In this document: positions 1 to 18,300 of the stretch, in pieces | Numbering within the stretch: position 1 is the first letter of the stretch | Layout of the letters: every line of letters begins with the position of its first letter | Assembly (NCBI GenBank): GCA_050178385.1 | Contig: JBFXGD010000047.1 | Coordinates: forward strand, 1 to 21,936 | DNA: 21,936 bases | Direction: 5' to 3' | Source: Calditrichaceae bacterium | GTDB lineage: Bacteria; Calditrichota; Calditrichia; Calditrichales; JBFXGD01 | Position numbers and translations under genes: made by a program | Notes under the pieces: generated by a model | Databases searched by the model: none | What the model saw: the letters and a program-made list of their open reading frames with translations, nothing else | Told to the model about the DNA's origin: nothing

Positions 1-1662
1 TTCTTCAAGGGTCTTTTTTAAATTTTCTGACTTTTTTGCAACTTCTTCCAGATCTTCCAAATTTTCCTGTTCATTTTTTGCAAAGGAGTCAAATAGTTCA
101 TCAAGCGATGGAAATCTGACATAATATATTTTACTTTTTCCCAGGCCCGGGCCTCTCACATTATTGTTGTCTTTTACCATAGCATAATATTTGATGCCAT
201 CATTAAAAGTGATGGGAAGTGTATTGAAATCCCACAGATAGTAATACTCTTTATTCGTGCGTTTTCCGTCTGCTGAATTGAGCTTAATTTCTGACCAGAG
301 CGTATCGGCGGACGACTCATTATTTCTTACAAATCGAAACAATAAAAACGCGGAACCGAGACCGTAATCATCCGATGCTTCGACTTTTAATTGAATTCTG
401 GCATCAAGCTGACTCTCAATATCTTTACCGGGCTCGACAATATCAACATAAGGCTGGTTATCGGGCATGATTTTTACTGTGTATTCGATGGGATCCTTAT
501 TGTAAAGACGCTGATTATCTTCTAGCCGGATCGAATAGCGATCATTTTGATTTATGGTAAAATTGCCTTCCAGATGATTTCCTCTTACCCGCAGGTTGAT
601 AGAATCTCCCGAATTAAAATGAATCTTCCCTTCCAGAACCGGGTTTTCTGTCTCCAGGCTTATCTCTGCGATTGTTCCCGAGAGCGCGTATATATCACCG
701 ACATTTCTGTCAATATACTGCTTATCGAGACCACTGTATGCCGGTGGAGTCAATACGATATCTATCCTGGAAATTTCCGGAGGTAGTAATACTTCAACGG
801 AATATTTTTCCGAGATGAGGAGGTCGTGCCATTGGTGTTCATTTTGCGGAGCACCCTCAAGCCTGTAATCAAAGGGTAGTTTAATATCCGTTAAAGCGGC
901 TTTGTAAATATGATTTTCTATGGTCATCGGGAGAGATCGTATGATTTTTCTTCCTCCCGGTTCTATAAGAACAAGGCTGAGATCTTTTAGCAGCGGTCCT
1001 GAATAATCTGCTTTGATTTCAATGGAATTCCCCTTTTCAACACTCGCGTCTCCCGGAAGTACCGAAAAATTGTACAAGGGCATTTCTTTATATTCGTTTG
1101 AAGGATTTAACAAACGCAAGGTCGAACGGCTGATATCCTGAAAATGAAATCCAATAATTACGAAGGCGCTGAATAAAACAGCAATAACTAATGCCATACC
1201 AGGAAGGTGATATTTCAATTTTAATTTTGAACTAAAATCAATACTTTCCGCGCGGTCTAAAAAATTGCTGATGGCCGCTTTGCGGAGGGATTCCGATGTC
1301 AAATTAGCGGGCTGTGTTATCAATTGGTAGGTATTCACAAGTTTATCTTCAATCATCGGATATGTCTTCCCCAGCATTTTTGCAATCGGGGTCAGATTCG
1401 ATGATGACGTCAGCGACATCCAATTGTTTATCGGTTTAAAAACAAAAGAATATCCGAGAATCACCAATACCGTAATATTGATAATCAATAATCCCCAGCG
1501 CGTTACCTCCGAGAAGTAGAATGCATGATCGGCGAGACTGATACTGATCCAAAATACCAGCAGCAGGATGAACATATACAAGGCCCTGCCCGCTAATTCA
1601 TAACGCAGCGCTGTCTTGCCGACCCGGTAGATTTCATCAAGTAATTTTTGTTCTTTTGTCAT
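1..1662 (-). CDS. DUF4175-like membrane protein with N-terminal TM helices, beta-rich domains and the start of a coiled coil (3' end outside window)
   Basis: Not in the ORF track because it has no stop in the window. Manual translation from ATG at 1662, 4 nt after the DUF4159 stop, stays open to base 1: MTKEQKLLDEIYRVG...; hydrophobic segments (LYMFILLLVFWISISLAD, WGLLIINITVLVILGYSFVF, MALVIAVLFSAFVIIGF); YPMIEDKLVNTYQL; TPPAYSGL; PDNQPYVDIVEPG; ASDDYGL; VKDNNNVRGPGLGKS; VRFPSLDELF. These motifs are typical of DUF4175/TIGR02302-like proteins found beside DUF4159. Confidence 0.8.
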   Translation of the reverse strand, partial: MTKEQKLLDEIYRVGKTALRYELAGRALYMFILLLVFWISISLADHAFYFSEVTRWGLLIINITVLVILGYSFVFKPINNWMSLTSSSNLTPIAKMLGKTYPMIEDKLVNTYQLITQPANLTSESLRKAAISNFLDRAESIDFSSKLKLKYHLPGMALVIAVLFSAFVIIGFHFQDISRSTLRLLNPSNEYKEMPLYNFSVLPGDASVEKGNSIEIKADYSGPLLKDLSLVLIEPGGRKIIRSLPMTIENHIYKAALTDIKLPFDYRLEGAPQNEHQWHDLLISEKYSVEVLLPPEISRIDIVLTPPAYSGLDKQYIDRNVGDIYALSGTIAEISLETENPVLEGKIHFNSGDSINLRVRGNHLEGNFTINQNDRYSIRLEDNQRLYNKDPIEYTVKIMPDNQPYVDIVEPGKDIESQLDARIQLKVEASDDYGLGSAFLLFRFVRNNESSADTLWSEIKLNSADGKRTNKEYYYLWDFNTLPITFNDGIKYYAMVKDNNNVRGPGLGKSKIYYVRFPSLDELFDSFAKNEQENLEDLEEVAKKSENLKKTLEE

Positions 1663-1666
1663 CAGA

Positions 1667-2317
1667 TTAATTTAACAAAGCATAGATAAATATGTTCACC
1701 GCCATCTCGAGCGCTTTCGCCCTTATTCCAGGAGGATCATTATGAATTTCCGGATCTTCACAGCCATCGCTGAGATCCGTATTAAAGCTATAGAAACAAA
1801 TCAGCCTGCCCTCATATATCAACCCATAACCGGCGGGGGGCCCACCTGAATGCTCATGGACTTTTGGCAAACCATGATCAAAATGATATTTTATGTGATA
1901 GATGGGATGAGAGAAAGGCAATTCTGTAAAATTCAGTTCCGGGAATACCTTTTTCATCTCTCTGCGAAACGATCTGTCCATCCCATAATCATCATCCGCA
2001 AAGAGGAATCCTCCCTCAGTAAGATATATTCTGAGCGCGGCCGCTTCCTGGTCAGTGAAAAATATATTACCATGACCTGCGATGTATGCGATTGGGTATT
2101 GCCTGAATTCAGGATCAGTTATTCGAAACGCAACTTCTCTGCTGCCTACAGAAAGGTTATAATCATTTTTAACCTTATCCAGAATATTCACCCAGGTAGT
2201 CTTGTTTCCATACCAGTCCCCACCCCCTCCATACTGAATACGCACAGGAGTAACTGTCTGACTTATTGAGACTGACCAGAAAAGCGATAAAAGATAGCAG
2301 ATGTTTTTCATATTCAT
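1667..2317 (-). CDS. DUF4159 domain-containing protein, probably exported
   Basis: Motifs YGGGGDWY, YPIAYIAGHG, YLTEGGFLFADDDYG, FRREMKKVFPE, LPFSHPIY, GLPKVHEH and TDLSDGCED match the FCB-type DUF4159 family. The ORF track starts at 2344, but that ATG lies inside a terminator hairpin. ATG 2317 or 2311 gives a signal-peptide-like N-terminus (MKNICYLLSLFWSVSISQ). Confidence 0.88.
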   Translation of the reverse strand: MNMKNICYLLSLFWSVSISQTVTPVRIQYGGGGDWYGNKTTWVNILDKVKNDYNLSVGSREVAFRITDPEFRQYPIAYIAGHGNIFFTDQEAAALRIYLTEGGFLFADDDYGMDRSFRREMKKVFPELNFTELPFSHPIYHIKYHFDHGLPKVHEHSGGPPAGYGLIYEGRLICFYSFNTDLSDGCEDPEIHNDPPGIRAKALEMAVNIFIYALLN

Positions 2318-2350
2318 AAAAAAAAACCCGAAATGAGCATTCATTCCGGG
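2318..2350 (-). terminator. Rho-independent terminator closing the giant-protein/partner-switching operon
   Basis: Minus strand reads CCCGGAATGA-ATGC-TCATTTCGGG-TTTTTTTTT: a 10-bp stem with one G-U pair, a 4-nt loop and a U9 tract, 30 nt after the DUF456 stop codon. Confidence 0.88.
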
Positions 2351-2351
2351 A

Positions 2352-2380
2352 AAATTAACCTTTTAAACATTTATTTACAA
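2352..2380 (-). promoter_or_regulatory. Possible sigma70-type promoter for DUF4159-DUF4175
   Basis: Minus strand has TTGTAA (2380-2375), a 17-nt spacer and TAATTT (2357-2352). The region is AT-rich, so a chance match is possible. Confidence 0.35.
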
Positions 2381-2881
2381 TCAAATTATTTTTGATACTA
2401 CCATAATAGCCATCGTAACTGTTCCAATGACTTTTATTGAGAGTCCCCCGAGTTTTCCTAAAAACGCCCCGAAACCCGAATATAAACTACCTCTTAAATT
2501 AGTCGTTCTAATAAATTCAAGTATAAAGGCACCCAAAAACACCCCGACAATTGATCCGATAATCGCTCCAAGCACCGGTGTAATGAAAGCTCCGCTTATA
2601 GCGCCAAGTATTCCTCCTACGATCCCGCCACTTATTCCCCATTTCGATGCGCCATATTTTTTAGCGGTCAGAGAAATTATCAGAAATTCCAGAAATTCGA
2701 TCAGAACCACAATGGCGAACAAAGTAAGAACAAAAGTGAATGAAAAGGATTCAAATCCCGTAAAAATACCATAAACAAGGCTGCTGCCGGCAAGAAGTGA
2801 ATTTCCCGGCAGACCATAAAAATTTGATAAAACTGAGATAAGGATGGTCATTACCAGACCAATTTCCATAATAGTTTCCAT
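2381..2881 (-). CDS. DUF456 (YqgC-like) family integral membrane protein
   Basis: 166-aa hydrophobic protein with GLPGN, AKKYGASKWGISGGIVGGILG and a glycine zipper LGAIIGSIVGVFLGAFILE, characteristic of DUF456. Confidence 0.88.
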   Translation of the reverse strand: METIMEIGLVMTILISVLSNFYGLPGNSLLAGSSLVYGIFTGFESFSFTFVLTLFAIVVLIEFLEFLIISLTAKKYGASKWGISGGIVGGILGAISGAFITPVLGAIIGSIVGVFLGAFILEFIRTTNLRGSLYSGFGAFLGKLGGLSIKVIGTVTMAIMVVSKII

Positions 2882-2898: not shown

Positions 2899-3591
2899 TC
2901 AGGAAGTCGCAAAATCGTATCTGCGCGCCTTACTGTTCAACCGCATCTTCGCAAGTTCAGCGCGAACTTCAAACCAGCCCGTACGGGTATAACCGAATTT
3001 TGCTGTATTAAGGGCTTTTTTAATTTTATACGCCCCAAAACCAGGTTGTTCCTTAACGATGAGTTGTATTTTTCTTGAGAGACTCAAATCAGCCGGATTC
3101 ATTTCAGTTAACTCATCAGCGACATTTACCTTCTCAGCGCGTCTGTCATCGGTTCTTTGAGAAATTGGCGCTGGCGTCGGCTGAGGTGCTTTGGGGAGTG
3201 TGATTTCTTTGGCAACTGATTTTCCGGCGGCTTCAAGCATCTCAAATTTGTTTATAGCCTCATCCACGGTATCATATACGTCAAGGATGTGGTGGAATTC
3301 CAGAAGTTCAAATATTTCGTAAACATCAGGAACCATGCGGACTAATTTTAAATCACCGCCGTTTTCTCTGATCGATTTAATCTCACTGATAAATATCCCC
3401 CATCCCGCGCTGCTGATGTAATCGACATTACCAAGATCAACAATTATAAAGAACCGCCCTTGTCTCAATAGAGAATCCAGCGCTCGCTCCAGCTCAGATG
3501 ACGTTGTAGTGTCGATATACCCACCAACTTTTATAATGGAGATATGGTTCCGACTACCTGCAATTTCAGTAGAGACTTGAATTCCTTCCAT
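2899..3591 (-). CDS. STAS-domain anti-anti-sigma factor (RsbV/SpoIIAA-like) with a Pro-rich linker and C-terminal HTH-like domain
   Basis: aa 1-116 form a STAS domain: VGGYIDTTT, IIVDLGNVDYISSAGWG (predicted phosphoacceptor Ser61), GGDLKLV, VYEIFELL. Linker LPKAPQPTPAP. Tail aa ~169-228 is paralogous to a domain of the 1138-aa protein. Confidence 0.93.
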   Translation of the reverse strand: MEGIQVSTEIAGSRNHISIIKVGGYIDTTTSSELERALDSLLRQGRFFIIVDLGNVDYISSAGWGIFISEIKSIRENGGDLKLVRMVPDVYEIFELLEFHHILDVYDTVDEAINKFEMLEAAGKSVAKEITLPKAPQPTPAPISQRTDDRRAEKVNVADELTEMNPADLSLSRKIQLIVKEQPGFGAYKIKKALNTAKFGYTRTGWFEVRAELAKMRLNSKARRYDFATS

Positions 3592-3652: not shown

Positions 3653-6600
3653 TTAGTTCTTATCATTCTTTACTAACGATTCCAGCAATGAAGTATTGCT
3701 GACTATTTTTTTCTGAGCCAACTTTTTCCGGGCAATATCCATTTCACTTGAATTTTTAGTTTTAGCTGCAGACAATTTTGCAGTTATATGACGGCGAATG
3801 ATACCGATTTTATTATTTATTTCAGTTAATGATGATTGAACATTCAATATATAATCTTTTTCGACATATTTCAATAAGTCTTTTAATTTGGAATATGCAA
3901 ATTCCTTACCCAAATCCTTAAACTTAGACTCAAGCAGCGCGACTGATTCCTGCGTCTGCTCATAAATCCTTTGAATGTCGGGTAATTTTTTTAATATCGG
4001 ATTCTTCAACATAATTTTTAATATTAAATTTATTTTTTTCATCTCCTGCGCTCCGTCGGCGCTGGCATCAATTCCCCTGAGCAGTGATGAGATACCGGCA
4101 AGATCATCAGCGATTGAATCAAAAAAGTGTGCCAGTTCCACTGAATCAGTTTCAATAACCACCGTGGCTAACAATTCTTCTCTCGTTTTTTTCCTTGCCA
4201 GTTTTTCTTTTTGATCAGTTTTGTTTTTCACGCTATCAGAGCGATCTTTTCCGGGTTTCTCTGCTTCCTCTGTAGGCTTAAATGATATCCCGTCCTGATT
4301 AACTGTGATTGTTTCCCTATTTTCAATTCCCTCGACACTAACCTCTGCTGATTCGTTTTCTTTTTCAGTAGTGCTATTTTCTGCCGGAGGAGCTTTTTCT
4401 AACGGCTTCTCCTTATCAGGTTCTTTTGCGGGCTCCTCCGGTTTTGCAGGCTCAGTTGATTTTGCTGACTGATGCATAAATAATGGAGAAACCGATTCAT
4501 CCTTTTTTTCCGGTTTTTGAGTTTTATCGGTGTTAAATTCTCTCACTACAGCTTTTTTCGTATCGATCGGCAGACTTGTCAATTTTTGGGTAGCTTCTCC
4601 GGTACGCTTTGCAATCTCACTTTCTGATGACTGGAAATTCATAATTACTTTTCCGTCAAGCGTCAATAGCGGTGTACCAGGCTGTTTCAGTGCTCTCTTG
4701 TCTCCCTTCGATACAAACCTGACACGCTGTTCCTTCGTATTTAATTTTAGCTTAACCATTTCATTGTACAATCTTTGCGAATCAAGCTTTTCAAAACCAT
4801 AAAGTTCGGTATTCAAATCGTTAACAATTCGATTAGCGCCATACTCAGGATGTTTACGAATGATATCAAATATTTTTGCTTTAAGTTCTACGGATAAATG
4901 TTTTTTCTCAACATAATCCTGACCTTCGAGATATTCTCTCAGCGCGTCTAGCCCGCCTTCTTCAACAATACTCTTATATTTATAATAATGATATTGTGAC
5001 ACCCGCATTTGGTCACATGCATCCTTCACACGGGATCCACTTGATATTAATTCCAGTAATTCCTTATGAATTTTGTATACCACTTCGCCCGGCATTAATT
5101 TCTCCTTTACCGACACGAATGTGATATCATCATTCTGTGGGGCGCCACCGGTAAATGTTTTCAGATCTCCCTTGACACTTCTTACAAATTCCGCCACATC
5201 AAGATGACCGTTATTCCGGATAGCATCCAGAAATCTTTCTTCCCTGTACAATTCCCGTTTAGAATTCATTGCTTCTGTTATTCCATCGGTATAAAGAATC
5301 AGAATATCATCTTCTCTTAACCGTATAGAATCTGTCTCGATCTTCCTGTCGAACAGGGTAATATCGGGAAGCTGAATTCCCACAGGAAATCCTGATGGAT
5401 TAAGGTAGTATGTCTTTTTTGCGGATCCACGGTATAATATCATCGGATTATGCCCGGCGCTCGCGTAATGAATGATTCGATTCCTCGAGTCAAGAATGAT
5501 ATAGAACATGGTCACGAACATGCCGCGTTTCATATCATCGGTAACAAACCGGTTCACTTTGGCCAGAACATCCGCCGGATTTTTATTTCCCCGTGACTCA
5601 AGACGCAAAGCGGTACGAATCATGGTCATAATGAGCGATCCCGGCACGCCTTTTCCTGACACGTCAGCAACAATTATCCCGATTGTATCTTCATCGACTT
5701 CAACAAAATCGAATAAATCACCGCCCACTTCCTTTGCCGCTTCATAATACGATGAAATTTCAAATCCCTCGACTTCTGGGAAGTCGCTGGGGAGAAGCAT
5801 CTGCTGTATTTCCTGAGCAACCTGCAACTCCTTCTGCAATTTTTGCTGCTCCATCAGATTTACCTGGGCCTCGCGGAATTTAAAATTCATGTCATTGATG
5901 GCCTGGGCAATTTCACCAAGTTCATCCGATGTATCGATATCAATTTCATCCTGATCAACTTTATCATGTACAACCTGCCGGACCCATTCAGCAAGATTCT
6001 GGAATGGCGTAAGGATTCGGTGTATCAGAAAGAAGGAACCAACATATCCAATTGCTATTATTATTAATAAATAAAGGATCAAGCGCAGGCGTTTAGCTGA
6101 GGCAATATCTATCAATGACCGTTCATCAACCCAAATATGAACTTCTCCAAGTGACGTGCCTTCACCCAACAAAGATTGCCGAATAGTTGTCGACAAATCA
6201 TAGATATAACTGCTGTCACCCAGGCTATAGCTCATTACTTTCACATTAGCCAAACTATCCAGCTGAATAGCATTTTCCGGAATGGAATAATTTCCGGGGC
6301 CATCCATTTTCAGAGGAGTACTCCGCGCCTCGATTCTGCCATCCGGAAGGACAACAAATGCTTCCTGAATTGTTTTTTGATTGTTGTTTTTTACAGAACG
6401 CGCTTTCTCGAATAAACCCAGTGTATTTTCATTTAAAAGATCGTCCATAGCGTTATCCGCGAGAGAACGGCAATTTGAAGCGGCCTGCGCAAAAACTTCC
6501 TCGTTTACATCATTTCTCACATCGAAGATAAAAATAGAGAAAATGAAAACGGTAATGACAGTAAGTATTAGTGAAGCTACCAAAGAGTATTTGGCTCTTA

Positions 6601-7069
6601 GTGAAAAAGCCCGCCACTTGCTTATAAACTTTGATTCTTCAGGCGGTTCCTGTTTTTTTGTAAGCCTGAACTCATTGCCGCGTTCTGTGACGGCATATTG
6701 CAGATCATCCATGAGCTTTCGCATCATCATAATACCCAAACCGCCTTTTTTACCGATATCCACGTATTTAGCAAGATCCGGTGTATTGGCTTGTCTTGGA
6801 TCGTATGTACGTCCCTGATCAATGATCACGATCGTCAGACTTAATCTTCGGGCGATAGCTTTAACGGTGATTTCACCATTTTTGATATCTCTGTATCCAT
6901 GGCGAATTACATTTGTACATGCTTCATCAATAACGAGCTTGAAGGAATTTACCAGTTTTTCATCATACCGGTACTTTTTACCGATATGTTCAACAAAATC
7001 ACGTATCTGGACCAGATAGCTCATTTGAGCCGGAATCGTGATTTCTTCTTTTTTTACATTTTTAAACAT
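3653..7069 (-). CDS. Membrane-bound bifunctional partner-switching protein: RsbW-like HATPase kinase, TM, periplasmic domain, TM, HAMP, SpoIIE/PP2C phosphatase, HTH domains, linker, helical C-terminal domain
   Basis: aa 1-138: LVIDEACTNVIRHGY (N box), IIDQG (G1), GGLGIMMMRKLMD (G2). TM1 ~161-182 and TM2 ~330-349. HAMP: ILTPFQNLAE...DELGEIAQAINDM. PP2C: ELQVAQEIQQMLLP, EVGGDLFD, VADVSGKG, SAGHNP, LYTDGITEA, QNDDIT. About 480 further residues follow. Confidence 0.93.
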   Translation of the reverse strand: MFKNVKKEEITIPAQMSYLVQIRDFVEHIGKKYRYDEKLVNSFKLVIDEACTNVIRHGYRDIKNGEITVKAIARRLSLTIVIIDQGRTYDPRQANTPDLAKYVDIGKKGGLGIMMMRKLMDDLQYAVTERGNEFRLTKKQEPPEESKFISKWRAFSLRAKYSLVASLILTVITVFIFSIFIFDVRNDVNEEVFAQAASNCRSLADNAMDDLLNENTLGLFEKARSVKNNNQKTIQEAFVVLPDGRIEARSTPLKMDGPGNYSIPENAIQLDSLANVKVMSYSLGDSSYIYDLSTTIRQSLLGEGTSLGEVHIWVDERSLIDIASAKRLRLILYLLIIIAIGYVGSFFLIHRILTPFQNLAEWVRQVVHDKVDQDEIDIDTSDELGEIAQAINDMNFKFREAQVNLMEQQKLQKELQVAQEIQQMLLPSDFPEVEGFEISSYYEAAKEVGGDLFDFVEVDEDTIGIIVADVSGKGVPGSLIMTMIRTALRLESRGNKNPADVLAKVNRFVTDDMKRGMFVTMFYIILDSRNRIIHYASAGHNPMILYRGSAKKTYYLNPSGFPVGIQLPDITLFDRKIETDSIRLREDDILILYTDGITEAMNSKRELYREERFLDAIRNNGHLDVAEFVRSVKGDLKTFTGGAPQNDDITFVSVKEKLMPGEVVYKIHKELLELISSGSRVKDACDQMRVSQYHYYKYKSIVEEGGLDALREYLEGQDYVEKKHLSVELKAKIFDIIRKHPEYGANRIVNDLNTELYGFEKLDSQRLYNEMVKLKLNTKEQRVRFVSKGDKRALKQPGTPLLTLDGKVIMNFQSSESEIAKRTGEATQKLTSLPIDTKKAVVREFNTDKTQKPEKKDESVSPLFMHQSAKSTEPAKPEEPAKEPDKEKPLEKAPPAENSTTEKENESAEVSVEGIENRETITVNQDGISFKPTEEAEKPGKDRSDSVKNKTDQKEKLARKKTREELLATVVIETDSVELAHFFDSIADDLAGISSLLRGIDASADGAQEMKKINLILKIMLKNPILKKLPDIQRIYEQTQESVALLESKFKDLGKEFAYSKLKDLLKYVEKDYILNVQSSLTEINNKIGIIRRHITAKLSAAKTKNSSEMDIARKKLAQKKIVSNTSLLESLVKNDKN
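4715..5075 (-). other. IS481-family-transposase-like tandem HTH region within the sensor (aa ~666-785)
   Basis: LLELISSGSRVKDACDQMRVSQYHYYKYKSIVEEGGLDAL and IIRKHPEYGANRIVNDL...LKLNTKEQR resemble the two N-terminal HTH modules of IS481-type transposases as I recall them (LL.La....VskAC..mgvSR..fYry......GG.daL; P..G..Ri..eL...L.....R). Confidence 0.65.
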
Positions 7070-7091: not shown

Positions 7092-9026
7092 TTATTTGCC
7101 TGCGCTCTTGAGGCGTTCTTTCGCGCCTTTTATTGCAGCCAGGACCTTCTTATTATAAGGATGTTTGATTAAAATTTCTTCCCATATACCGATGGCATCC
7201 TGATATTTACCGATAAGGAATTTCTCCACGCCTTCGTGATAAAGTCGTTCCGCGTCCGGATCCATTTCATCTTCTTTTCCTATGGTTTCCACTTTCGACC
7301 GTTCAACATACTGCTTAACCAGCGGATTCTCAGGATCCATATCTAAAACGCCCTCAAAAAGCTGTAATGCTTTACTATACTCTCCTATATCGTACAAAAG
7401 CAAGCCTTGTTGAATATTTTCTTGTAATTTTATTCTTTGAGCCAATGCTTCGATCTCCGTCTGCAACTCCGCATTCTGCCCACCAAGCAATCTTGCGTCT
7501 GCCAAAAGCCGCAACGCTTCAGAATAATTCTGGTTTTTAAATTCTTCCCTGCTTTTACGAACAAGGCTGTTTATTTCTTCCGACAACCTTCTTTTTGTAG
7601 TTGAAATGGCATTCAGTAACGTCTCATTTTTCGGATCGCGCTCAAGTGATATGTTAAACTCAATTAAAGCTTCTGTAAACTGTTTTTTGTCAAGGAATAA
7701 CCGGCCTTTTTCAAAATGTTCATTTACATAACGCCTGTCATTCTCAGCCCTGTCTTTATCCAGAGCGTCTTGCACCGCCAGAGCCTGCTGTGCTTCAAAT
7801 CCTTTTTGCAGCATTGTATTTGATGAATCGAGCATCACCTTTGCTCTAAAATGGAACGGATCTTGTCCGATTACCTGCTGATATTCAACAATTGCATCCA
7901 GAAATTTTTCGGCGTTAAAAAATTCATCCGCTAATTTCAGGTGCGTAATAATCGATTGCTGCCTGTCAGACTCTCGTATTTCGGCGATGATGCGGTCTTC
8001 TTCTTCCTGTCGTTTTGCCTCTGCAATAGTAAACAGATCATCCCTTGTCAAACCGAAATTGAATGAAAGCGAAATGCGGTGTACCGCTGAAAAATAATCA
8101 CTGTATTCTGTCGAGCCAAAAGCATAGTCAATCTGGAAAAAACGATATTCGACACCGGCGCCGTATGTCAACCCATTGTTATCCATACCCAGCCTGAGCA
8201 TGCCCATATCTCTAAAGCTATACTCCGTCCCCATATTCAGTTTTAAATCTCTTTTTTCAGAATAATCAAAATCAAATGCCAGGTTTAATCCCCCTCCACC
8301 CGCAAATCTTAATTTTTTGTTGAGACCTAACCGGATACTCATCGGGTAATCGTCAACATCTATGCCTTCCTTTACTTGCGGAGGAAATAAGTTATGAATA
8401 TTTAAACCAAAAGACCAATCCTGAAGCCATCTGTTCGTAAACCAATCCGGACGATACATTATACCCAGATCGAGACCGACACCCATATCACTTAAACTTC
8501 CTTCATCATACAGATTACTCCACGCCCGTCTTACAACCCTGATCGTTGCCCCTGATGATAAATCCCATGGCAATTTTTTGGCGTATGAGAAATAAAACTC
8601 ATATTCTTCGCGGGAAAATTCACCTAAATATACATTATCTTTATCTGTCTGACTAATTTCACCGACTCCGATACGACCAATACCCAATCCAAAAGTCCCT
8701 AAACCCAGAGTCGGGAACGCATAGCCGAGGAAATCATAATTCGTTCCTTCAAAAAGAGACATGTGGAACAGTGTAACACTCTGTTGATAAATATATTCCA
8801 GTCCGGCAGGGTTCCAGAACACAGCAGTCGGATCATCCGCAATGGCTGTAAAGGCATGACCCATACCCATTGAGCGGGCCCCGTAACCAAAACTCAGGTT
8901 GCTCTCCGTTCCTCCCTGTCCATCCTGGGCGACCGCTCCGGCAGAAAATATTAAAATTGCCAAAACAGTGATGAATAAGCCTTCTGTTCTATTAAATAAT
9001 TTTTTTAATATTTGCATACCCGCCAT
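7092..9026 (-). CDS. PorV/PorQ-family (FadL-like) outer-membrane beta-barrel fused to a C-terminal coiled coil and TPR repeats
   Basis: Signal peptide ...FITVLAILIFSAGAVA|Q. Family signature LSFGYGARSMGMGHAFTAIADDPTAVFWNPAGL. Amphipathic strands end at IDYAF...HRISLSFNF (aa 324). TPR motifs follow: FLDAIVEYQQVIGQDP, FTEALIEFNISLERDP, YSKALQLFEGVLDMDP, YQDAIGIWEEILIKHP. Confidence 0.85.
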   Translation of the reverse strand: MAGMQILKKLFNRTEGLFITVLAILIFSAGAVAQDGQGGTESNLSFGYGARSMGMGHAFTAIADDPTAVFWNPAGLEYIYQQSVTLFHMSLFEGTNYDFLGYAFPTLGLGTFGLGIGRIGVGEISQTDKDNVYLGEFSREEYEFYFSYAKKLPWDLSSGATIRVVRRAWSNLYDEGSLSDMGVGLDLGIMYRPDWFTNRWLQDWSFGLNIHNLFPPQVKEGIDVDDYPMSIRLGLNKKLRFAGGGGLNLAFDFDYSEKRDLKLNMGTEYSFRDMGMLRLGMDNNGLTYGAGVEYRFFQIDYAFGSTEYSDYFSAVHRISLSFNFGLTRDDLFTIAEAKRQEEEDRIIAEIRESDRQQSIITHLKLADEFFNAEKFLDAIVEYQQVIGQDPFHFRAKVMLDSSNTMLQKGFEAQQALAVQDALDKDRAENDRRYVNEHFEKGRLFLDKKQFTEALIEFNISLERDPKNETLLNAISTTKRRLSEEINSLVRKSREEFKNQNYSEALRLLADARLLGGQNAELQTEIEALAQRIKLQENIQQGLLLYDIGEYSKALQLFEGVLDMDPENPLVKQYVERSKVETIGKEDEMDPDAERLYHEGVEKFLIGKYQDAIGIWEEILIKHPYNKKVLAAIKGAKERLKSAGK

Positions 9027-9031
9027 CTCAC

Positions 9032-9328
9032 TTATTTTATATAAGCAATTTTTGTGATAAATGTTTGCCGCGATCCGCCGCTTTTCGGCTTAATATCAAT
9101 CGCACAGAGATAAACCCCGTTTAAAACCACATAGCCACGGTCATTTTTACCATTCCATCGGACATCATCATAGTGCAGACCGGCAATCTGATTCGGCAGT
9201 ATTTTCGTCCATACAAGTTCACCAAGCAGAGTGAAAATCCTGATTTCCACATCCGAATCATGATCGAGCTGAAATACGATTGTGGTAAACTCTTCATTTC
9301 GACCAAACGGATTCGGATAATTTCTGAA
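9032..9328 (-). other. C-terminal secretion/sorting domain (T9SS CTD / FlgD-Ig-like)
   Basis: FRNYPNPF...FQLDHDSDVEIRIFTLLGELVW...VRWNGKNDRGYVVLNGVYLCAI...ITKIAYIK carries the YPNP, GxY and terminal KxxxxK hallmarks. Confidence 0.82.
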
Positions 9329-12300
9329 TGCCTCTTCGGGATTTGATGAAATCACCGTGAAAGCTTCAGATGTATAACTCTGACTTTCATTAATATCCAC
9401 GCCCTGAGCATCCTTAATCGCCAGCGGAACAGATGGATCCACATCGTAAGCGTTCACATGTTTTAATACTGTTCTGAAACTCCTGTTTTCCGCTTCGGTC
9501 TGTAATTCCGCCAAAACAATAATCGTATCCACCGCGCCGGCCTCTAGTGTATCGACTAGTGAAAAATCCATCCAAACAGGATTATCGGAAGATTCATCAA
9601 GTTGATACTCAGCAAAAATTTTCGGCCGCTGAACCGCGGTATTTTTTGTTAAACCGGTTTTGTACTGATCATAGTTTACAACTTTCAGGCTCTTCATCAT
9701 ATTCGCGATGGCCAGCTGATTTAGGAGATTATCCGCCGTAGGCAAACCGAAAGTGGAGTATAATCCAATCTCAACTGCATTCACATTCAAATTATCCTCA
9801 TATCCCTGATTGGATATTGAAAACGCCAGAATAGCCCTGTCTGTCATTCCGCGCAGGAAACTCCGGTCAACAATTAAGTCATTCAGCATTAAAACTGTAA
9901 TATTTTTCTGTCTGACTCTGACCGGGAGCGAAACGAGACCCGTCATGACATCAATTTCCGCGGATAATCCACTGTTCTTATCTGACGGAAGCCCTGTAAA
10001 ATTAAAGTTTATACTGACCGTACGTTCTGATAACGGAGCTTTAATGCGCCATACCAGTTTTTGACCTAATTGTGTAAATGTCTTCTTGTACGTTTCACCT
10101 TCGACAAGCGTAAATCCATTTTGTATGATCAAAGCGGAATCCAGACTTATCGCCCCTGAACCCTGAACATCAGCATATCCTATTCCTGAAGTATTTTCGG
10201 CATATTCAGCCCAAAGCTCCACAATTACTTCCTGACCAAACGAAAGCAATCCGGCCTGTGATGAAACCGGTGAAATAAGCGTGTGCTTTAATGAAAGTTT
10301 TGGTCTCTTTTGCACCGTCAACGGATTAGCTACAAGCGAGGTCGGATCAGTTACTTCACCACTGTTTCTGTCGATACCGGTTAAAAATACCGCGATAGTG
10401 TCTTTTCCGGTTCCCGTGTAATCTGCCGGTACGGCGATATCCCAGGTGGCCTGATTATTGATATCAAGAGATCTGGCGATAACCGCGCCGCCAAATTTTT
10501 CAGGCATCAGGAGATATGCCACCGGGTTGGCCAGGTTTGAACTGATCTGACCGGTTACACGATATATAAATGTTTGACCTGTCGAGACGGTATCAGGTGA
10601 TTCTGTCGATACAATACTAAGAGTTGCTCCTTCTTCCGTATAAATTGTCTTAGTCTGAGTTTCATTTATTGTCGCGGGTTTTTGGGTATTCACATCGAGC
10701 GGAATGCTGTCAACTTTTACCGTAATCTGGTAAGATTCTTTTGCCGCTGCAGCTACAATAAGAGCATCTTTAACCACTTTTTGTAAATCTGTACCGCTTA
10801 TTCTGCCATCAAGCTGCTCAATATCACCTGTCTCTTGACCGGGTGAGCTGTTTTTACTGTTGATCCCGTTTAAAATACTTTTAAGCTCGGCCATTGATGC
10901 GGCGCTTTTTGTTGACGCTCCGTCCACTCTGACCCACCAGTAAAAAGGTGTGCCTACGGTAAAAGTCTTTTGTGTATCAGGATCAATCAAAGTAAATTCA
11001 GGGCTCAAAAGAATTGATGTCTTTCCCGTTCCGGATATGGCCGCGGTTCCGGGTTGAAGCGTCACTAACCCTTCCAGCTTCAAGGTTTGACCCACAGATA
11101 CCGTATCATCTGTTGCGCCCGCGGGTTCAACAATCTTTAATCCCAAAACAAGTGATGATTTCAGCACAACCTGTACAGGCAGAAGATTTGATGTTGTCTC
11201 TACAAGCTGTCCGCTGTTCTTATCATATCCGATTATCCTGACACTTATATTAACTGTTCCCGGTGTAGGCGAACCGGTAGCAACTATTTCCCAATCAACA
11301 ACAGCCGTGGATGTAGCCGGTAAATCTTTTATGGAACTTGTTTTCACTGAAAAACCGGATGGTAGAAGAATCTGAGCCACTCTGCCGGTATCACGAACGG
11401 ACTGGTTGAAAGATATCTCTGTATGAAGGACAAATTCCTGCCCCGTTGAGATAACACTGTCCCGGGCACCATCGGGTGAAGCTATACTTATCAAAGCTGT
11501 GACTATGCCGGCTTCATCAGTCCTTACCAGAACCGTATCAATCGTTTTCACCGTTGTTACGTCTCTTCCCGTATTGAGATCAATCGGAATTTCATTCATC
11601 TGAATTCGCAGGCTGTCAAATATACCTCCGGTACTCACTGAAAGCGCTTCCAAATTCCATTCAGCATATGCCTGTGACTGTGTAAATGTTTTTTCACTAA
11701 TATCACTGTCAAATTTATAATGAATCGTATCCGGCAGACTCATTGTCATCTTGCCGCTGCCATAAGATGACACACCGCTTACTCTGCTTACATCAGCGCG
11801 AACTTTAAATTTTGTCCCAACCGATATGATTCCGTCAACCGCTCCAACCGGCGAAATAATGGCCGCATTAAGAGCTAAACGGCTTGCGGTCTGAACCAAT
11901 ACCGTTTCCAAATTATCAACCGGTTGTTGAATTGTTACAAGACTCCCTGTCAAATCAATCGCGGAATCAATTTTTACCTTATACACCGTGGATCCGTCTA
12001 TTGCCAAGCCCGGTGAGTTATAGACCATTGTTTTGTAATTAAACGGCGCGATATCTGTCATCACCAGCTGCTGCAGGAAATTATCATCTCTGGATAAGGA
12101 AACATATGCGGTCCGGATCGTGTCAGCTCCGTTGTTTACAAGTCTCAACCGGAGATTAAACGATTCGTTTTGATTGACATAAGGCGCGTTCGGTGCCAGA
12201 ACATCTTTTATGATTTTCAACGAATCAATCCCCACTATAGCCGGACGTATCACTAATACAGAATCCATGAAAATCACTGTTTTTGATGTGTCAGTAAAAG

Positions 12301-15300
12301 TCGAAGTCCGCAGATCCCGGTATGAAACAATCGGCCTTGGTTTCACAATACCGGTCGTTGCGGATTGCGATAAGTTATAATTTATCGAATAGGTTCGGCT
12401 TTGACCGGCCATGAGAGTATCAGGGAACAGATTGAACGTAGAGGGGAGCCATTGTGTTGAAACATCTGCAGCACCGGCGTTGAATATATGATCTATCTTA
12501 CTGATTGCCGCTGATGATTTTCCAAGGTTAGCCAAAGTATAGTCGATGGCGATATCATTTTGCCCCTGTCTTACTGTTTCGGGTAAAATATTTATCTGGG
12601 TGAAAATGAGCCTGGCCTCAGGAATAATTTTTAAAACCCCGAAAATCGTTTCTTCTTTTTCATAATCAGACCCGTTCAGCAATGTTCCCTTTAATCGCCA
12701 TTTTACATTATAAATAACCGTGTCCATTGTTACTGGAACCGTTAGACTATTAAATAAGATCTCCGTGGAATCAAGCCCGCCAAGTGTAAATTTACCGGCA
12801 AGATATTTCCGGGATATGGGCGAAGAAAGAATCTCCATATAGGAAGAATCAGGGTCCAGCGCCAAATCTGCTGATCCCGCGTTATAAAATGTGAATGCGA
12901 AGGAATTTGTTTGCCTTCTCACCAGCGTATCCGGATTCATACTTCCTAATACATAGCTGATGTTTGCTTTTGACAAAACAATCATGTCTTCAAAAGTGGA
13001 GGATTCTTTCACCAGATTGCCGTTATCCAGACTGATTTGACCAAAAATATTCGTCTGTCCCAACGGGAAAGGATCCGGCAGATCAAAAACAAATATGAGA
13101 CGATTATTACTGCTGGTTTTTAGCACCGTCAGAGTGTCGGTGCGGTTTAAATTATTGACATTCCGAATACTGCCGTCCGTGGCGGATTTCATTATTAAAG
13201 TAGTTCCGGCCGGATCAATCTGAAGCGGAATTCCGCTGTTTGACACCGTCATTATAACCTGAATCCCTGTCTGTCCCGGAATAACCCGGTTATCACCGAC
13301 AATACCAATTGATGTAATTGAAATCAAGCCCGCTCCATAGGCAAAAATGCCGGCATCATGATCACTCTGATATGCCGCCTTGTTCGATGCTCCCCTGACG
13401 TGCAGTCTTAACGGATATTCCTGAGATTGTATTGCGGTAATCAGGGTACTTCTGAATACAAGTTCGGTGGTATCGGGAAATGCTTTGATAGTCTGCGGAC
13501 TTGTTCCCGCCAAATTAATCAAATACGAAGTTCCCTGGATCTCTATGGAAGTAAGATTGGAATCAAGTTCGACTGTCGCTTCTCCTCTATTCACTACTTT
13601 TAGCCGGAATTGAATAGTCGTGTCTCCCGGAGATGCATTGGGAATGGTCTCAAAAACCGAAAGCGCTGCCGGTGTTTCAATAAAAAATTGCCCCGGACTA
13701 CCCGAGCTCGCGCTGAGATCTGCTCCGGAGTTGGACTCTTTCCCTGAAATGGTATTATTCACTCCAACAGTACCTGTATATCCCGAAGGAATGACTAATG
13801 AATAAATAAGAGTGTCCGTTAAACCACCCGACAGGTTAAAGGGTGTTGAATGACTGATCAAAACGGGTCCAAGATTTATTGGCGGTGACACTGACAATTG
13901 ATTGGAATTAATGACAGCGTCAGCTTCCCCGGAGTTTGAGACACTTATTGAGAGCCGGGCATGCGTTTGTCCCTGACTTACCGTATCGGGAAGGACCGCA
14001 ACTGAATTAACCGCCAGAAGAGCTTGCTGCTCAACTGTTAAACTACCGGCTATTACAGCTCCGTCCTGAATAGTCAGCATTCCGTCATTAACATCCCTGG
14101 TCCCTGTATAACCGTCAACACTATAGATATCAGACAATGTACCGCCCAGAGTCGCCAGATTAAAGTCAAACCTTGTCGATGACCCGGGTTTTAATATTAA
14201 CGGAATTGAAGGTGATGAATTTCGTGAAATCGTGAATAAATCATTTCTCTCAACCGCGCCGCTTGTCATTAATTTTAGTCGGACAGAATCCACCTGCGCA
14301 TCCGCGCGGTAAGGACCCGCGGCATTACTCATATATATCGCTGCCCGGAGATTAGACTGATTTGTTGAAACAAGCTGCGGTGCTACCGTCACACTATCGA
14401 TCACAACCTGAGGCCGCAATTGAACCTGCCATGTATCCGTCACCGTTGTGTCGGTGATGTCAAAATTTTGCTGTGACAGCAGTTCTGTTAAATTGATACT
14501 GGCATACATGGTATCTGGCCCGGTTTGCGCGTCAAAATTAATATCCACCGGTACGGTAAACACCTGGGATAAACCGCTGTCAATTGTTCTTGGCAGAATC
14601 GGACTAACCGGATTAAAGACATAATTTTCATTTCCGTTTTGATACTGAAGCGCCAATGTTTCAACTCTGGCAGGAGATGTTCCGACATTTTTCACTCTCA
14701 CACTTACATTGACTGATGTCTGCCCCTGTGACACAAAATCCTTCACCGCGGAAACACTGATAATCTCGACCAAAGGCTTTCCGGTCACTTCCCAGGCCAT
14801 AAAAGACGCACTAGTAAGGCTTGATGACTTTCCGGAAAAATTGTTCTGATATTTTATGCTCGCATACAAAGTATCATGGCCTGTTGCTGAATTTGTTTGC
14901 ACCGAGACTGAATCAGTGATTGTTATTTCAGAATGTCCTGCCAACGGGATGGGGAAAGCCGGCCATTCGTTGGTATACAAACCGATTTCAGCGATGAGAT
15001 TCAAATTGTTTATCGAAACCGGTGTTCCACCGCTATTCCTTATCGTGACCGAAACTGGTATTTTGGACTGTCCCTGGCTAACAAGACTGTCGGCCGGATT
15101 CACATGAGCAATTTGGGTAATTGATATAACCGGAGGTGTATATACGTTCCAGGAATCTGTTGCCACGGCGGATGCAGTGGTAATCTCGCTTCCGCTGTTG
15201 ATATCAATCCCTTTTCCTCTTGCGTCAATCGTGACTAATCCGGTATCGGGACCTGTGGGTACCGTCACTCTGACGTCGAATGGCCTGGTCTCACCGCCTG

Positions 15301-18300
15301 TGAGCGTATTCGGGAGCCCCGGCGCGATTGAAACCGGTACGCCATATGGTATAACAACAAGAGAATCGATTCTTAATAAGGCCTGTCCGGTATTTGTTAC
15401 ATCGATTGTAAGCAAGGTATCCACACCCTGACTGATATCGGTTCCGGAAGCGATGACAGAATTAATTTGTAACACCGCCGGATTTTGAACGACCAGACTG
15501 TCAGCGGCAGTAAGAGAATCATTAAACGCGGCGCCGTTTTCAGTACCGTTTAATACAAGAAGTCCTTCATATTTGGCATCACCCGGAATGGTCAGATTGG
15601 TGGCAGTGAAATTCAATGTTGTAGTCGATCCGCCTCCGGCGAGCGCCTGATTGGTAGTCAAATTAAATTTTTGACCTCCAAACTCAAAACTTGTAGATGT
15701 TTTATTTAAAAGGACATCATAAACGCCGTCATTTTTAACCTGTGCTGCAAACTGAACATTTTGACCGGCTGATACCGTTTTAGGAGTGTAATCAGCAAAC
15801 GTCAGAACGGCTGCGTTCGCAATGATAAACTGATCAGTTTGCGAAGATTCTGTATCGGAAATCAAATCCCCGGTACCGGAGTACCGGCCCATGACTGTTC
15901 CATCAACAATTATAGTATCCGGTGTAGCGCCGCTGGGAATATTGAGTGAGAACTCAAAAATTCCATCAGAATCACTTAGAAGAGAGTCCGGTCCCGATAA
16001 TTGAACTTCACTAAATCCATAATCAGGAGTAAATGTCAGATCCGCACTGAGATCACGAATCGTGTACATACTGGTGTTTCGGATTCTCATTTGAATCATA
16101 TTTATGGTGTCACTCTTCCGGACTATTTTAGACGCCGGATCGAGAACTGTAACCGATACAATTCTCAGAGGCTCAATGGAAAGCTCTACAGCATCCGTAG
16201 AAAGAGTGCCGTTCATTCCGCTATAATCTTCCCGGCCGACCAGATGAATTTCGGGCGTGTATTTTCCGCTAAGGAATCCACCATTAATAATCGCCGGTTT
16301 AAATTTCAATAAATTTTCCGGACTGCGGGGCGGCAATGCCAGCGGTGAATCCAGTTTAGCGGTAATACTGTAATCAGTATCGTTTATAATAAAGCTGCTC
16401 AGGGATGTATCCAGAGGTACAATGTCAATTCCGGGATTGGAAACTTTTACATAAAATGTGGTCGTATCTCCGGGCATTACAACCTTTGGCTCCAGAGAAT
16501 TGGATACATAACGGATGCCGTATATTTTAAAGGCCGCTGTATCAATCAATCCTGTGATATAGGCTTTCGCAAAAGAGGAATCAGCCTTTTTGGGACTGGT
16601 ATAAAGCGAATGCGCTAAGCCATTTTCATCGGATTTATCGGTCAGGTTTGAAATATATTGTGTCGGAATAAACTGAACAGTCTGATCTTTTACCATATTG
16701 CCGAATTGATCCTGAACCTGAGCGACTATCTGCTGATTACCGCCTGCGATGCTAGTCCGGTTATTTCCTGAATAGGCGACAATCGTATTTGCCACATCCG
16801 CATTCACAAGTGCATTAAATATGACAGGGGTCTTTCCGGGACTGTCCACTGTGAGAGTGTCATTTCCCGATACGGTTCTCAGTGTCCATATTACTGAATC
16901 CAGACCACTTGCATTCGTTACTAATCCTGAATGATCAACTCCTCCGTCTAGCGAAGGCGTCCAGTTAATCGTCACACCCTGGACAGGGTTGTTATAAGCG
17001 TCAACAGATCTCACTTTAAGATATTGAACAAGCGGCTGACCAACCGTACCGGTTTGATTATTTCCGGAGACTATGAGTATCTGAGCCGCTGTATCCGGCA
17101 CAGCAAATGCTGTAAACTTAATCGGACTGTTGTTCAACTGACTATTGAAAGCTGAAACCTGATACTCTCCTGTCATACTCCCCAACTGGAAGAATGTTTG
17201 CACATTACCATAAGCGTCTGATAAACCGGATTCCTGTGTAAAATTGAAATTATGCTCCGCGTTTACCGGGTGATCTGTCACGGAAAAGGTAACCGAAACC
17301 CCTGCAACCGGATTCCCGAAATTATCTTCGACCCTAACCACAAATGGTTGTGCAAGAGTATCCTGAACCGTACCCGTCAGAGAATCACCGGAAACATAAA
17401 CAAGTGTATTTGCAGATGAACTTAAAGCATTCGCGTAAAAGATAACCGGTGTGGCAATTCCTGCAACAGCGGCAGAAGCCGAGTCTAGTCCGACAGTTGT
17501 TTTCAGACGCCATTTACTTCTGGAAACGCCCTGGGTGTCAGTGGCATCAGACACAGGATTAAGAACGCCGTCACTATTTGTACTCCAGGTTACACTGGCA
17601 GCCGGCACCAGATTATTATAAGCGTCAACAACCCGTATTCCCAGTGAATCACTGATGAAATCACTGACCCTACCGCTAACCGTATCCGGGGTAATTTTTG
17701 TAATCGCAAACGCCGCGCCGGATCTGACTTTGATAATTCCCGAATAATCATTCAAGGAACCACGTGTAATTTTGATCTGCGAAGAATTTGCCACAGTGAA
17801 ATTAATGGTATTAGTTGCCGCGGAATCCGTTTGAGTAAACGCGCCGATCGAGTCACCGTCAACGGTCCATGACACATTTGCCGGCGAGATATAATTTCCT
17901 TTAACGTCATAACCAGCCGCGTACAAATCTAAGGACCCACCCGCTGCGGCAGTGTAAGCGCCTAACTCAGTACCTCCGGCGCCGGCAGTGGTCTGAATTC
18001 TGATGGATGCCAACTCTCCCGTCTGAACCGTAATCGTACCGGTCGCATCGTTGGTCCAACCGTTGGAATTTGTAACCTGTACTGCACCTGAGCCTGGTGA
18101 AGTCGGTGTGAGAGTAGTTACATACACATTTGTACTATTTCCAAGACCGGTCAATCCGCCTGTTACGTTCCAGTTAACAGGAGCATTTTGACTAAAATTA
18201 TTATCACTATCATATCCTGCCGAGTACAGGCTTAGAACCTGTCCAACCGCAAGAGTTGAGTCACCTATTTCAATTCCTCCATTGTTCGATTCAGTGCGAA

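Follow-up and report, generated by a model that had tools for sequence, protein, structure and literature searches.

The signalling gene described here lies in a 21,936-nucleotide contig of a Calditrichaceae bacterium (assembly GCA_050178385.1, contig JBFXGD010000047.1; this whole stretch is called the window below) and encodes a predicted membrane sensor with serine kinase and phosphatase domains, directly followed by a two-part helix-turn-helix (HTH) module. Comparison with transposase families confirmed the homology of this module with the N-terminal two-HTH region of IS481-type transposases, and comparison among genomes established it as a fixed, single-copy and selected domain of the sensor in Calditrichota and related phyla. 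Most likely, the module was captured once, long ago, from an IS481-type transposase without its DDE core. We further propose, with a probability of about 0.55, that the HTH modules of the sensor and of the STAS protein encoded beside it retain DNA binding and would act as the output of a phospho-switch.

The module occupies approximately amino acids (aa) 660-790, is in frame with the rest of the sensor and begins a few residues past the end of the PP2C phosphatase domain. The gene, the two halves of the module and the peptides by which a preliminary description of the window had recognized the region are the following.

3653..7069, minus strand: sensor gene, an open reading frame (ORF) of 1138 aa, from the ORF listing and its translation.
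4925..5092, minus strand: HTH1, aa 660-715, with helix, helix and recognition helix (SQYHYYKYK), then the 'EEGGLDAL' stretch common to IS481 transposases; placed by the IS481 profile from position 5 onward and by alignment with IS481 N-termini.
4700..4924, minus strand: HTH2, aa 716-790, a second helix-turn-helix of HTH_32 type; placed by the IS481 profile to position 92-108 and the IS3 profile at positions 101-190.
5099-5137, minus strand: peptide QNDDITFVSVKEK, aa 645-657.
5036-5059, minus strand: peptide LLELISSG, aa 671-678.
4940-4957, minus strand: peptide GGLDAL, aa 705-710.
4823-4852, minus strand: peptide HPEYGANRIV, aa 740-749.
4724-4750, minus strand: peptide LKLNTKEQR, aa 774-782.

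All the peptides reported for the phosphatase end and the segment after it were located on the minus strand within this one ORF (aa 645-782). The preliminary description was also right that the segment is in frame and without stops, as the true frame is open throughout; the span that it gave, 4715-5075, corresponds to approximately aa 665-785, and its literal translation shows stops because the span is not codon-registered.

The relationship with IS481 transposases is supported by searches in both directions. A 145-aa fragment carrying the module matched the NCBIfam model NF033577 (IS481 family transposase) with an E-value of 1.5e-8 and 34.5 bits, residues 16-103 aligning with positions 5-92 of the 284 in the profile, which is specifically its N-terminal part; the IS3 profile came second on the same fragment (E 4.9e-6). 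We scanned each member of an alignment of 24 module sequences (A1) against 18,950 curated NCBIfam models. The IS481 model matched all 24 members (best E 3.5e-18), IS3 matched 22, ISNCY 12, IS630 7 and IS21 3, and a single non-transposase model, that of an ACT-domain protein, matched 7. A best profile match to some non-transposase fold, which had been named beforehand as evidence to the contrary, was not observed, the best curated match being the IS481 N-terminus. In the reverse test, the A1 profile was run against the transposase ORFs of 86 Calditrichota genomes, and three IS481 transposases above the family cut-off scored best (41.7, 38.9 and 38.1 bits; profile positions 3-136 aligned with aa 2-180 of these proteins, which are 340-358 aa long), followed by IS481/IS3-like elements (22-25 bits) and IS630 (17 bits). 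A tblastn search of 72,556 plasmids with the window module gave marginal matches (E 2e-3 to 5e-2, ∼31% identity); four were fetched, and both annotated ones are IS481 family transposases aligned from aa 15. Residue alignment with these annotated plasmid transposases bore out the claimed motif order of the IS481 two-HTH region, including G-G-x-D-A-L between the helices, and both recognition helices retain the family signatures S-x-x-T/H-F/Y-Y-K/R-Y/W and V/I-Y-x-x-L-x-R/K-x-x-L. A Pfam search for HTH families, which had been suggested as a check, gave a divided answer. The window module stayed sub-threshold (HTH_29, HTH_28 and HTH_23 at E ∼4e-3, 17.2-17.7 bits against cut-offs of 24.6-28.1; HTH_Tnp_1 at E 0.015; HTH_32 at E 0.12, 13.4 bits against a cut-off of 33.7), and many of its relatives matched at E ≤ 0.01: among the 24 members of A1, 15 with HTH_23, 15 with HTH_28, 12 with HTH_32, 10 with HTH_29 and 2 with LZ_Tnp_IS481.

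The sensor itself is not an IS481 transposase, as it fails on whole-protein score, DDE core, inverted repeats and mobility. The cut-off of 224 bits of NF033577 was reached neither by the whole protein (30.0 bits) nor by the fragment (34.5 bits). The earlier observation that no full DDE domain is present holds, since no rve or DDE family of Pfam was found in the sensor at E ≤ 1 and the IS481 match ends at position 92-108. Terminal inverted repeats, whose absence had likewise been reported, do not bracket the segment: a search around it returned only five weak pairs of 14-25 nt, 72-93% complementary. No other match to the IS481 profile was found in the bacterium's own genome assembly, which is 94% complete and in 320 contigs, a state in which repeats are often unassembled.

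An AF2 model of the 145-aa module is all-helical and confident (pLDDT 85.9, pTM 0.53). In the numbering of this model, the predicted helices of HTH1 lie at 5-21, 26-33 and 37-68, with pLDDT above 90, and those of HTH2 at 72-84, 90-97, 109-118 and 124-134. In an exhaustive search with VIA, the sole matches extending across both halves were bipartite DNA-binding regions of transposases, namely MuA (4fcy, Z 5.8, with 121 residues aligned at a root-mean-square deviation of 12), Tc3 (1u78, Z 5.0), TnsB (8aa5, Z 4.9) and IstA (8b4h, Z 4.9); HTH2 alone gave weak fold matches to winged-helix regulators (Z ∼5). A profile search of PDB sequences with the module returned nothing credible, the best match being an N-acetyltransferase (E 0.0074). 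The predicted fold is consistent with the sequence result, for which it is supportive at best and not decisive.

The module is present throughout the phylum. A word-indexed search with the region returned 74 proteins at E ≤ 1e-3, the window's own included, all of them with SpoIIE, with 43-92% identity over the full segment; their source names, where given, are Calditrichota or 'bacterium'. A related-locus scan, with one genome per species and an 8-row alignment (A2) as the query, gave 39 loci, of which 37 carry the labels of Calditrichota taxa, one that of Caldisericaceae and one that of Actinomycetota. The module profile matched at E ≤ 1e-15 in 82 of the 86 genomes of the phylum and in 52 of its 53 high-quality ones; the four without a match are 52, 67, 80 and 92% complete. 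One full-length match was found in 80 genomes and two partial matches each in G009 and G040, and the module-bearing genes with undisturbed open frames encode 838-1276 aa. Across the phylum, the module sits at the same position after PP2C. In 31 full-length orthologues it is free of gaps, with mean pairwise identities of 0.51 for HTH1 and 0.59 for HTH2, compared with 0.81-0.84 for the enzymatic domains and HAMP and 0.27-0.30 for the linker and C-terminal domain. The ratio of non-synonymous to synonymous substitution (dN/dS), calculated by the Nei-Gojobori method for the window sequence and L014, the relative closest to it (dS 0.74 over aa 1-800), was 0.068 for HTH1, 0.050 for HTH2, 0.010 for SpoIIE and 0.148 for the linker, and a second pair gave 0.025 for HTH2. 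This test, which had been proposed earlier, thus yields values of 0.03-0.07 for the module, indicating purifying selection; absence or decay in orthologues was not what we found.

In the wider family, a profile search among longer proteins gave 296 matches at E ≤ 1e-3, and among the 120 of them listed, 118 carry SpoIIE and none carries rve. The region behind the module varies by group: a linker and helical domain in the clade of the window, TPR repeats, nothing at all in proteins of ∼870-920 aa, or three STAS domains. The last arrangement was observed in Candidatus Krumholzibacteriota, where chains of 1400-1575 aa (P0151, P0250, P0126 and ∼35 others) combine the kinase, sometimes sCache_3_2, HAMP, PP2C, the HTH module and three STAS domains. 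An exhaustive search of 1.84 billion representatives with the single sequence gave 158 matches at E ≤ 1e-3. Fifty-eight of the weaker ones were scanned with Pfam and comprise 12 SpoIIE fusions, 9 GT2 glycosyltransferases, 2 STAS proteins and 1 TetR fusion, the rest being HTH-only. The GT2 glycosyltransferases, of metagenomic origin (P0167, P0188, P0197, P0201, P0204, P0211, P0217, P0220 and P0221) and up to 1473 aa long, open with two tandem HTH1-HTH2 modules and form one clade (support 98/95) with DDE-less tandem-HTH proteins of 280-390 aa. This clade may represent a second, separate capture of the module.

To place these sequences, we used a tree of 89 rows and 143 columns (LG+C20), rooted on a weakly attached IS630 outgroup (79/48). 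The rows, picked by hand, include 37 fusion representatives, obtained by clustering 223 fusions at 55% identity, as well as 14 of 20 tandem proteins, 13 small proteins and the N-termini of 8 IS481-type and 3 IS630 sequences; IS3 was excluded, as its HTH region spans two frames. All 37 fusion modules form one clade (98/92), the tandem/GT2 group forms another (98/95), and IS481/IS3-like elements branch outside the polytomy that holds both (91/88). Since the fusion modules make up a single well-supported clade, the capture would be a single old event, and a single origin of the fusion is supported by these sequences. The claim that the arrangement is old agrees with this clade, with the single copy in 80 of the 82 matching genomes (86 searched) and with neighbours that are fixed in 30-36 of the 39 loci.

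The origin of the module can also be read in other ways. A recent and neutral remnant of an insertion sequence (IS), in frame by chance, would account for the likeness to transposases, and nothing else speaks for it: the module stands in the same place after PP2C in 82 of 86 genomes, is under purifying selection, falls with all other fusions in one clade, is not bracketed by inverted repeats and has a GC content resembling that of its flanks. The phylum-wide presence, the dN/dS values and the single clade exclude such a remnant, whose probability we regard as negligible. A more serious alternative is that the module comes from an old cellular family of bipartite HTH proteins that also supplied the N-termini of IS481, in which case the direction implied by 'domestication' would be wrong. 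Several results weigh against our reading of the module. The window copy matches the Pfam HTH families only under their gathering scores, and sub-threshold matches to the IS481 profile were also obtained in 9 of 14 control genomes and are thus common as such. A Foldseek search of the module model against the PDB gave no match at E ≤ 1e-3, with TnsB and Pax5 as weak top rows, and Z-scores of up to 5.8 are in the range that VIA calls common for helical models. The nesting within IS481 that had been anticipated did not emerge from the phylogeny. The fusion clade, the tandem-HTH/glycosyltransferase clade, small HTH proteins and true IS481 N-termini all emerge from one polytomy, and a tree constrained to keep the IS481-type rows and the small rows associated with them together loses 0.97 log-likelihood units, so that monophyly of IS481 is not rejected (p-AU 0.466). 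The nearest non-fusion relatives in the single-sequence search are DDE-less (small HTH proteins, tandem-HTH proteins, GT2 fusions and one TetR fusion), and among the 58 proteins scanned no DDE-bearing protein was found, apart from one 22-aa scrap of rve_3. HTH phylogenies are, moreover, hard to resolve on account of the small size of the domain, as stated in passages of PMC8987985. Set against a cellular origin, the NCBIfam models matched by most members of A1 are those of transposases, and many of the 'small HTH proteins' group among bona fide IS481 sequences in the tree and may be N-terminal fragments of transposases or OrfA-like products. The fusion is also limited to a small set of related phyla, in contrast to the wide spread of IS481-type elements, and passages of PMC8987985 treat this kind of distribution as the usual signature of capture. 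On balance, a cellular origin seems unlikely to us. Because the tree is a polytomy and the argument is drawn from abundance, the direction from transposase to host is one that we infer.

The remaining domains of the sensor place the module in a signalling context. From the N-terminus, the protein consists of an RsbW-type serine kinase, a transmembrane (TM) segment, an outer domain, a second TM segment, HAMP, PP2C, the two-part HTH, a linker and a helical C-terminal domain.

6656..7036, minus strand: HATPase_c_2 (RsbW-type serine kinase, anti-sigma-like), aa 12-138; Pfam PF13581, E 1.5e-26, 93.3 bits, above cut-off.
6020..6586, minus strand: two hydrophobic segments, aa ∼162-182 and ∼329-350, and the variable domain between them; Kyte-Doolittle 19-mer scan.
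5888..6031, minus strand: HAMP, aa 347-394; Pfam PF00672, E 3.6e-7.
5105..5692, minus strand: PP2C/SpoIIE phosphatase, aa 460-655; Pfam PF07228, E 8.2e-50, 169.9 bits, above cut-off.
4670..4699, minus strand: tail motif K-R-x-L-K-Q/P-P-G-T-P, aa 791-800; alignment A1, identity 0.73 in the 31 orthologues.
3656..4669, minus strand: linker (low-complexity K/E/P, variable, aa 801-960) and helical C-terminal domain (aa 961-1138); identities 0.30 and 0.27.

Sensor orthologues in Calditrichota are 1063-1345 aa long, and the database names of relatives go no further than 'SpoIIE family protein phosphatase' or 'HAMP domain-containing protein'. The kinase domain has a mean pairwise identity of 0.82 among the 31 orthologues; against the NCBIfam RsbW model the sensor scores 66.8 bits, under the cut-off of that model. 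Two hydrophobic segments flank the variable region, and the protein is therefore predicted to be a membrane sensor with its kinase, HAMP and phosphatase domains in the cytoplasm. The region between the segments, presumably an extracytoplasmic sensor domain, has an identity of 0.35 among the orthologues and carries sCache_3_2 in some relatives. The C-terminal extension matched no Pfam family at E ≤ 10 beyond one chance-level match. The short tail motif (aa 791-800) showed zero non-synonymous changes in two close pairs. It is kept in Calditrichia and in the TPR-bearing clades. The three A1 rows that diverge most lack it; STAS domains are present in two of these rows (P0126 and P0151), and one row bears the name Krumholzibacteriota.

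Directly downstream of the sensor gene in the window lies the gene of its presumed substrate.

2899..3591, minus strand: STAS partner gene, 230 aa; Pfam STAS PF01740 at aa 14-112, E 3.6e-20, 72.2 bits.

In the partner, a disordered linker joins the STAS domain (aa 14-112) to a basic C-terminal domain (aa 166-230) with homology to HTH2. This C-terminal domain corresponds to the diverged second module that had been reported on the neighbouring gene, a report that was upheld by BLASTP (E 6e-10, 28% identity over 72 aa) and by the A1 profile (E 1.7e-9). The AF2 model predicts a STAS fold, a linker with pLDDT below 50 (124-164) and helices at 171-181, 187-194, 206-215 and 221-229, which is the pattern of HTH2. 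The STAS gene directly follows the sensor gene in 36 of the 39 related loci; two of the other contigs end there, and one locus, from the TPR-bearing clade, lacks the gene. In all 36 STAS sequences the loop D-Y-I-S-S-A-G-W-G is invariant, and we take it, from what is known of SpoIIAA/RsbV, to be the site of the phosphorylated serine. In the tail, P183, K191, L194, G200, W206, R210, L218 and R224 are conserved among the same sequences, and the linker is variable. The STAS domain (window 3256-3552, minus strand) was seen to be nearly invariant across the 36 species, most positions of aa 1-107 being the same in every row. Kinase and phosphatase, with 0.81-0.82 identity, are much less conserved, a difference that hints at many simultaneous binding partners.

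A second STAS protein with an HTH2-like tail, of 271 aa and scanned with Pfam, is encoded in the same genome (G000:C5, ∼11964-12779, plus strand; L042:868-1683). By eye, from the translations, its neighbours resemble a sugar transferase, a chain-length determinant and a protein of polysaccharide export, a setting that recalls SypA in the syp locus.

By analogy with SypE and SypA, the sensor would be a bifunctional kinase and phosphatase for the STAS serine. The outer sensor domain would set the balance between kinase and phosphatase, and this balance would determine the phosphorylation state of the serine. The HTH modules would carry the output to DNA, with the STAS-HTH protein as a phospho-switched DNA-binding regulator, and the sensor's own module might hold the enzyme at, or compete for, the same DNA sites. 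An output of this kind would therefore amount to direct control of transcription without a sigma factor, with the sensor as a putative membrane-tethered transcription factor. The likely target would be the conserved giant-adhesin/PorV-like operon that houses the switch and is described below.

Retained DNA binding is favoured because both recognition helices keep the signature of the transposase family, because the fusion modules are at least as basic as true IS481 N-termini (net charges +2.6/+4.3 vs +0.6/+2.8), because the STAS tail is strongly basic (net +9, pI 10.4) and because the conserved locus holds no sigma factor gene. HTH2 of the sensor has a net charge of +3. There are also observations that count against DNA binding as the output. 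HTH1 of the window copy is slightly acidic (net -2, pI 5.6, within a family range of -6 to +11). The place of the module, between the phosphatase and the long C-terminal extension of a membrane protein, is an awkward one for binding DNA. No operator or other target DNA for the predicted DNA-binding modules was found in the window, where the gaps around the sensor and STAS genes measure 17-61 bp and no intergenic region is of note. The module could instead be of transposase type in origin and have lost DNA binding for a protein-protein role, either docking the STAS protein through their common HTH2-like domains or serving as an intramolecular client of the RsbW-like domain. We consider this reading possible but clearly less probable than retained DNA binding. 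In its favour, enzyme and presumed substrate carry the same HTH2-type domain, the STAS domains of the Krumholzibacteriota chains stand in cis just past the module, HTH1 of the window copy is acidic, and the nearest DDE-less relatives include tandem copies on GT2 glycosyltransferases, which are enzymes and not regulators. Passages of three sources point the same way: modules resembling partner switches can have enzymes as direct targets, for instance a glycosyltransferase that carries STAS (PMC13555669), SypA works downstream of syp transcription (PMC3610818), and the substrate specificity of PPM phosphatases is set by docking interactions (preprint 10.1101/2024.05.03.592459). However, the residues of the IS481 N-terminus persist in both recognition helices, the pI of the STAS tail fits nucleic-acid binding and not pairing with a basic HTH2, and the ∼900-aa clades keep the module without any extension behind it. 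A complex prediction for the module and STAS aa 160-230 returned 'no answer' with a score of 0.00, which is no evidence either way.

In a more specific and rather improbable version of retained DNA binding, the captured transposase module would replace the sigma factor in cis. The RsbW-like domain would bind the sensor's own HTH module in the way that an anti-sigma factor binds sigma, the dephosphorylated STAS-HTH protein would displace it, and both HTH modules would then occupy sites at the giant-adhesin/PorV-like operon that descend from the ends of old transposons. If this were true, gene expression throughout the phylum would be coupled to a surface protein secreted by the type IX system, through a membrane-tethered, phospho-switched transcription complex.

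The genes around the sensor and STAS genes were also recorded. Upstream, at 7092-9026 (minus strand), lies a gene for a 644-aa outer-membrane protein of the PorV/PorQ family (NF033709, 151 bits against a cut-off of 90) with C-terminal TPR repeats, and at 9032-21934 (minus strand) a giant ORF that runs past the contig end and codes for at least 4300 aa, with Big_1 Ig-like domains and a weak match to the C-terminal tail of type IX secretion (Por_Secre_tail, 19.7 bits against a cut-off of 23). The PorV-like gene precedes the sensor in 33 of the 39 loci and the giant gene in 30. After the STAS gene, window 1-2881 (minus strand) encodes DUF456 (166 aa), DUF4159 (225 aa) and DUF4175 proteins, whose genes are kept in 23, 35 and 31 of the 39 loci, respectively; since they recur in related loci, the conserved block comprises at least seven genes. 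The sensor is single-copy in high-quality Calditrichota genomes (52 of 53) and stands mostly beside the giant surface protein and the PorV-family barrel, so that a central role in the phylum's envelope biology is probable. Interrupted genes were noted in three individual assemblies: a break between HTH1 and HTH2 leaves the sensor of L038:4042-7299 as two frames of 725 and 360 aa, one TAG falls within the module match of G020:C37:63876-64313, and the STAS gene of L033:7709-8433 is divided into two frames, 202 and 104 aa long. Each could be a true break or an artefact of assembly.

The known outputs of partner switching are sigma factors and, more recently, direct action on enzymes. If our proposal is true, a third output would act directly on DNA, through a transposase-type HTH on both enzyme and substrate. 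It would also be a clear example, in bacteria, of a signalling protein that has taken up the DNA-binding domain of a transposase. Full-text literature searches, which covered articles without their supplements, gave no description of a SpoIIE/RsbW fusion or STAS protein with a transposase-type HTH, and in a review of STAS proteins (PMC8256260) the terms helix-turn-helix, DNA-binding and fused are all absent. Capture of transposase DNA-binding domains is well documented in eukaryotes. What passages of PMC8987985 on prokaryotic co-option present are Xre- and RHH-type factors, not transposase N-termini. The sensor gene is a core gene of the phylum and would be tractable in the cultured Caldithrix abyssi.

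In comparison with known systems, the module resembles the IS481 N-terminus (NF033577; HTH_23/28/29 and HTH_32) in its collinear two-HTH layout, its recognition-helix motifs and the 'G-G/x-x-x-A-L' stretch between them. Unlike that N-terminus, it lies mid-chain in a 1138-aa signalling protein, and unlike an IS481 transposase, this protein has no DDE/rve core and no inverted repeats and is immobile, being single-copy and syntenic across the phylum. With RsbU/RsbV/RsbW and SpoIIE/SpoIIAA/SpoIIAB the switch shares the same three families, HATPase_c_2, PP2C and STAS. It differs from these systems in that kinase and phosphatase are fused and predicted to be membrane-bound, and in having no adjacent sigma factor gene; the output domain appears here to be the HTH modules in place of a sigma factor. 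ToxR and CadC are membrane-tethered transcription regulators with an N-terminal OmpR-type winged helix and no enzymatic domains. Like them, the sensor is predicted from its sequence to combine a membrane anchor and a cytoplasmic domain of DNA-binding type in one chain, but this domain is a transposase-type bipartite HTH and is placed after a kinase and a phosphatase. In All4160/HenR of Anabaena, as described in passages of PMC13555669, a phosphorylatable STAS domain is joined to its effector, a glycosyltransferase, and the switch acts directly on this effector. The STAS partner described here is similar in that STAS is covalently joined to a putative output domain, which is a basic HTH-type domain instead of a glycosyltransferase. 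By analogy of architecture, the closest known system is partner switching of the SypE/SypA type. SypE of Vibrio fischeri is a fused serine kinase and PP2C phosphatase that acts on one STAS protein, SypA, according to passages of PMC3610818. Both systems unite an N-terminal RsbW-type kinase and a C-terminal PP2C in one chain, have a dedicated single STAS substrate (presumed in our case) encoded nearby with no sigma factor in the locus, and are tied to a cell-surface or polysaccharide locus. Whereas SypE is soluble with a central receiver domain, the centre of the sensor is formed by two predicted TM segments, an outer domain and HAMP, and no REC domain was found in it with Pfam. Furthermore, SypE and SypA have no HTH module, whereas here a transposase-type HTH is found on both partners, as the bipartite module of the sensor and as the second-HTH-type tail of the STAS protein.

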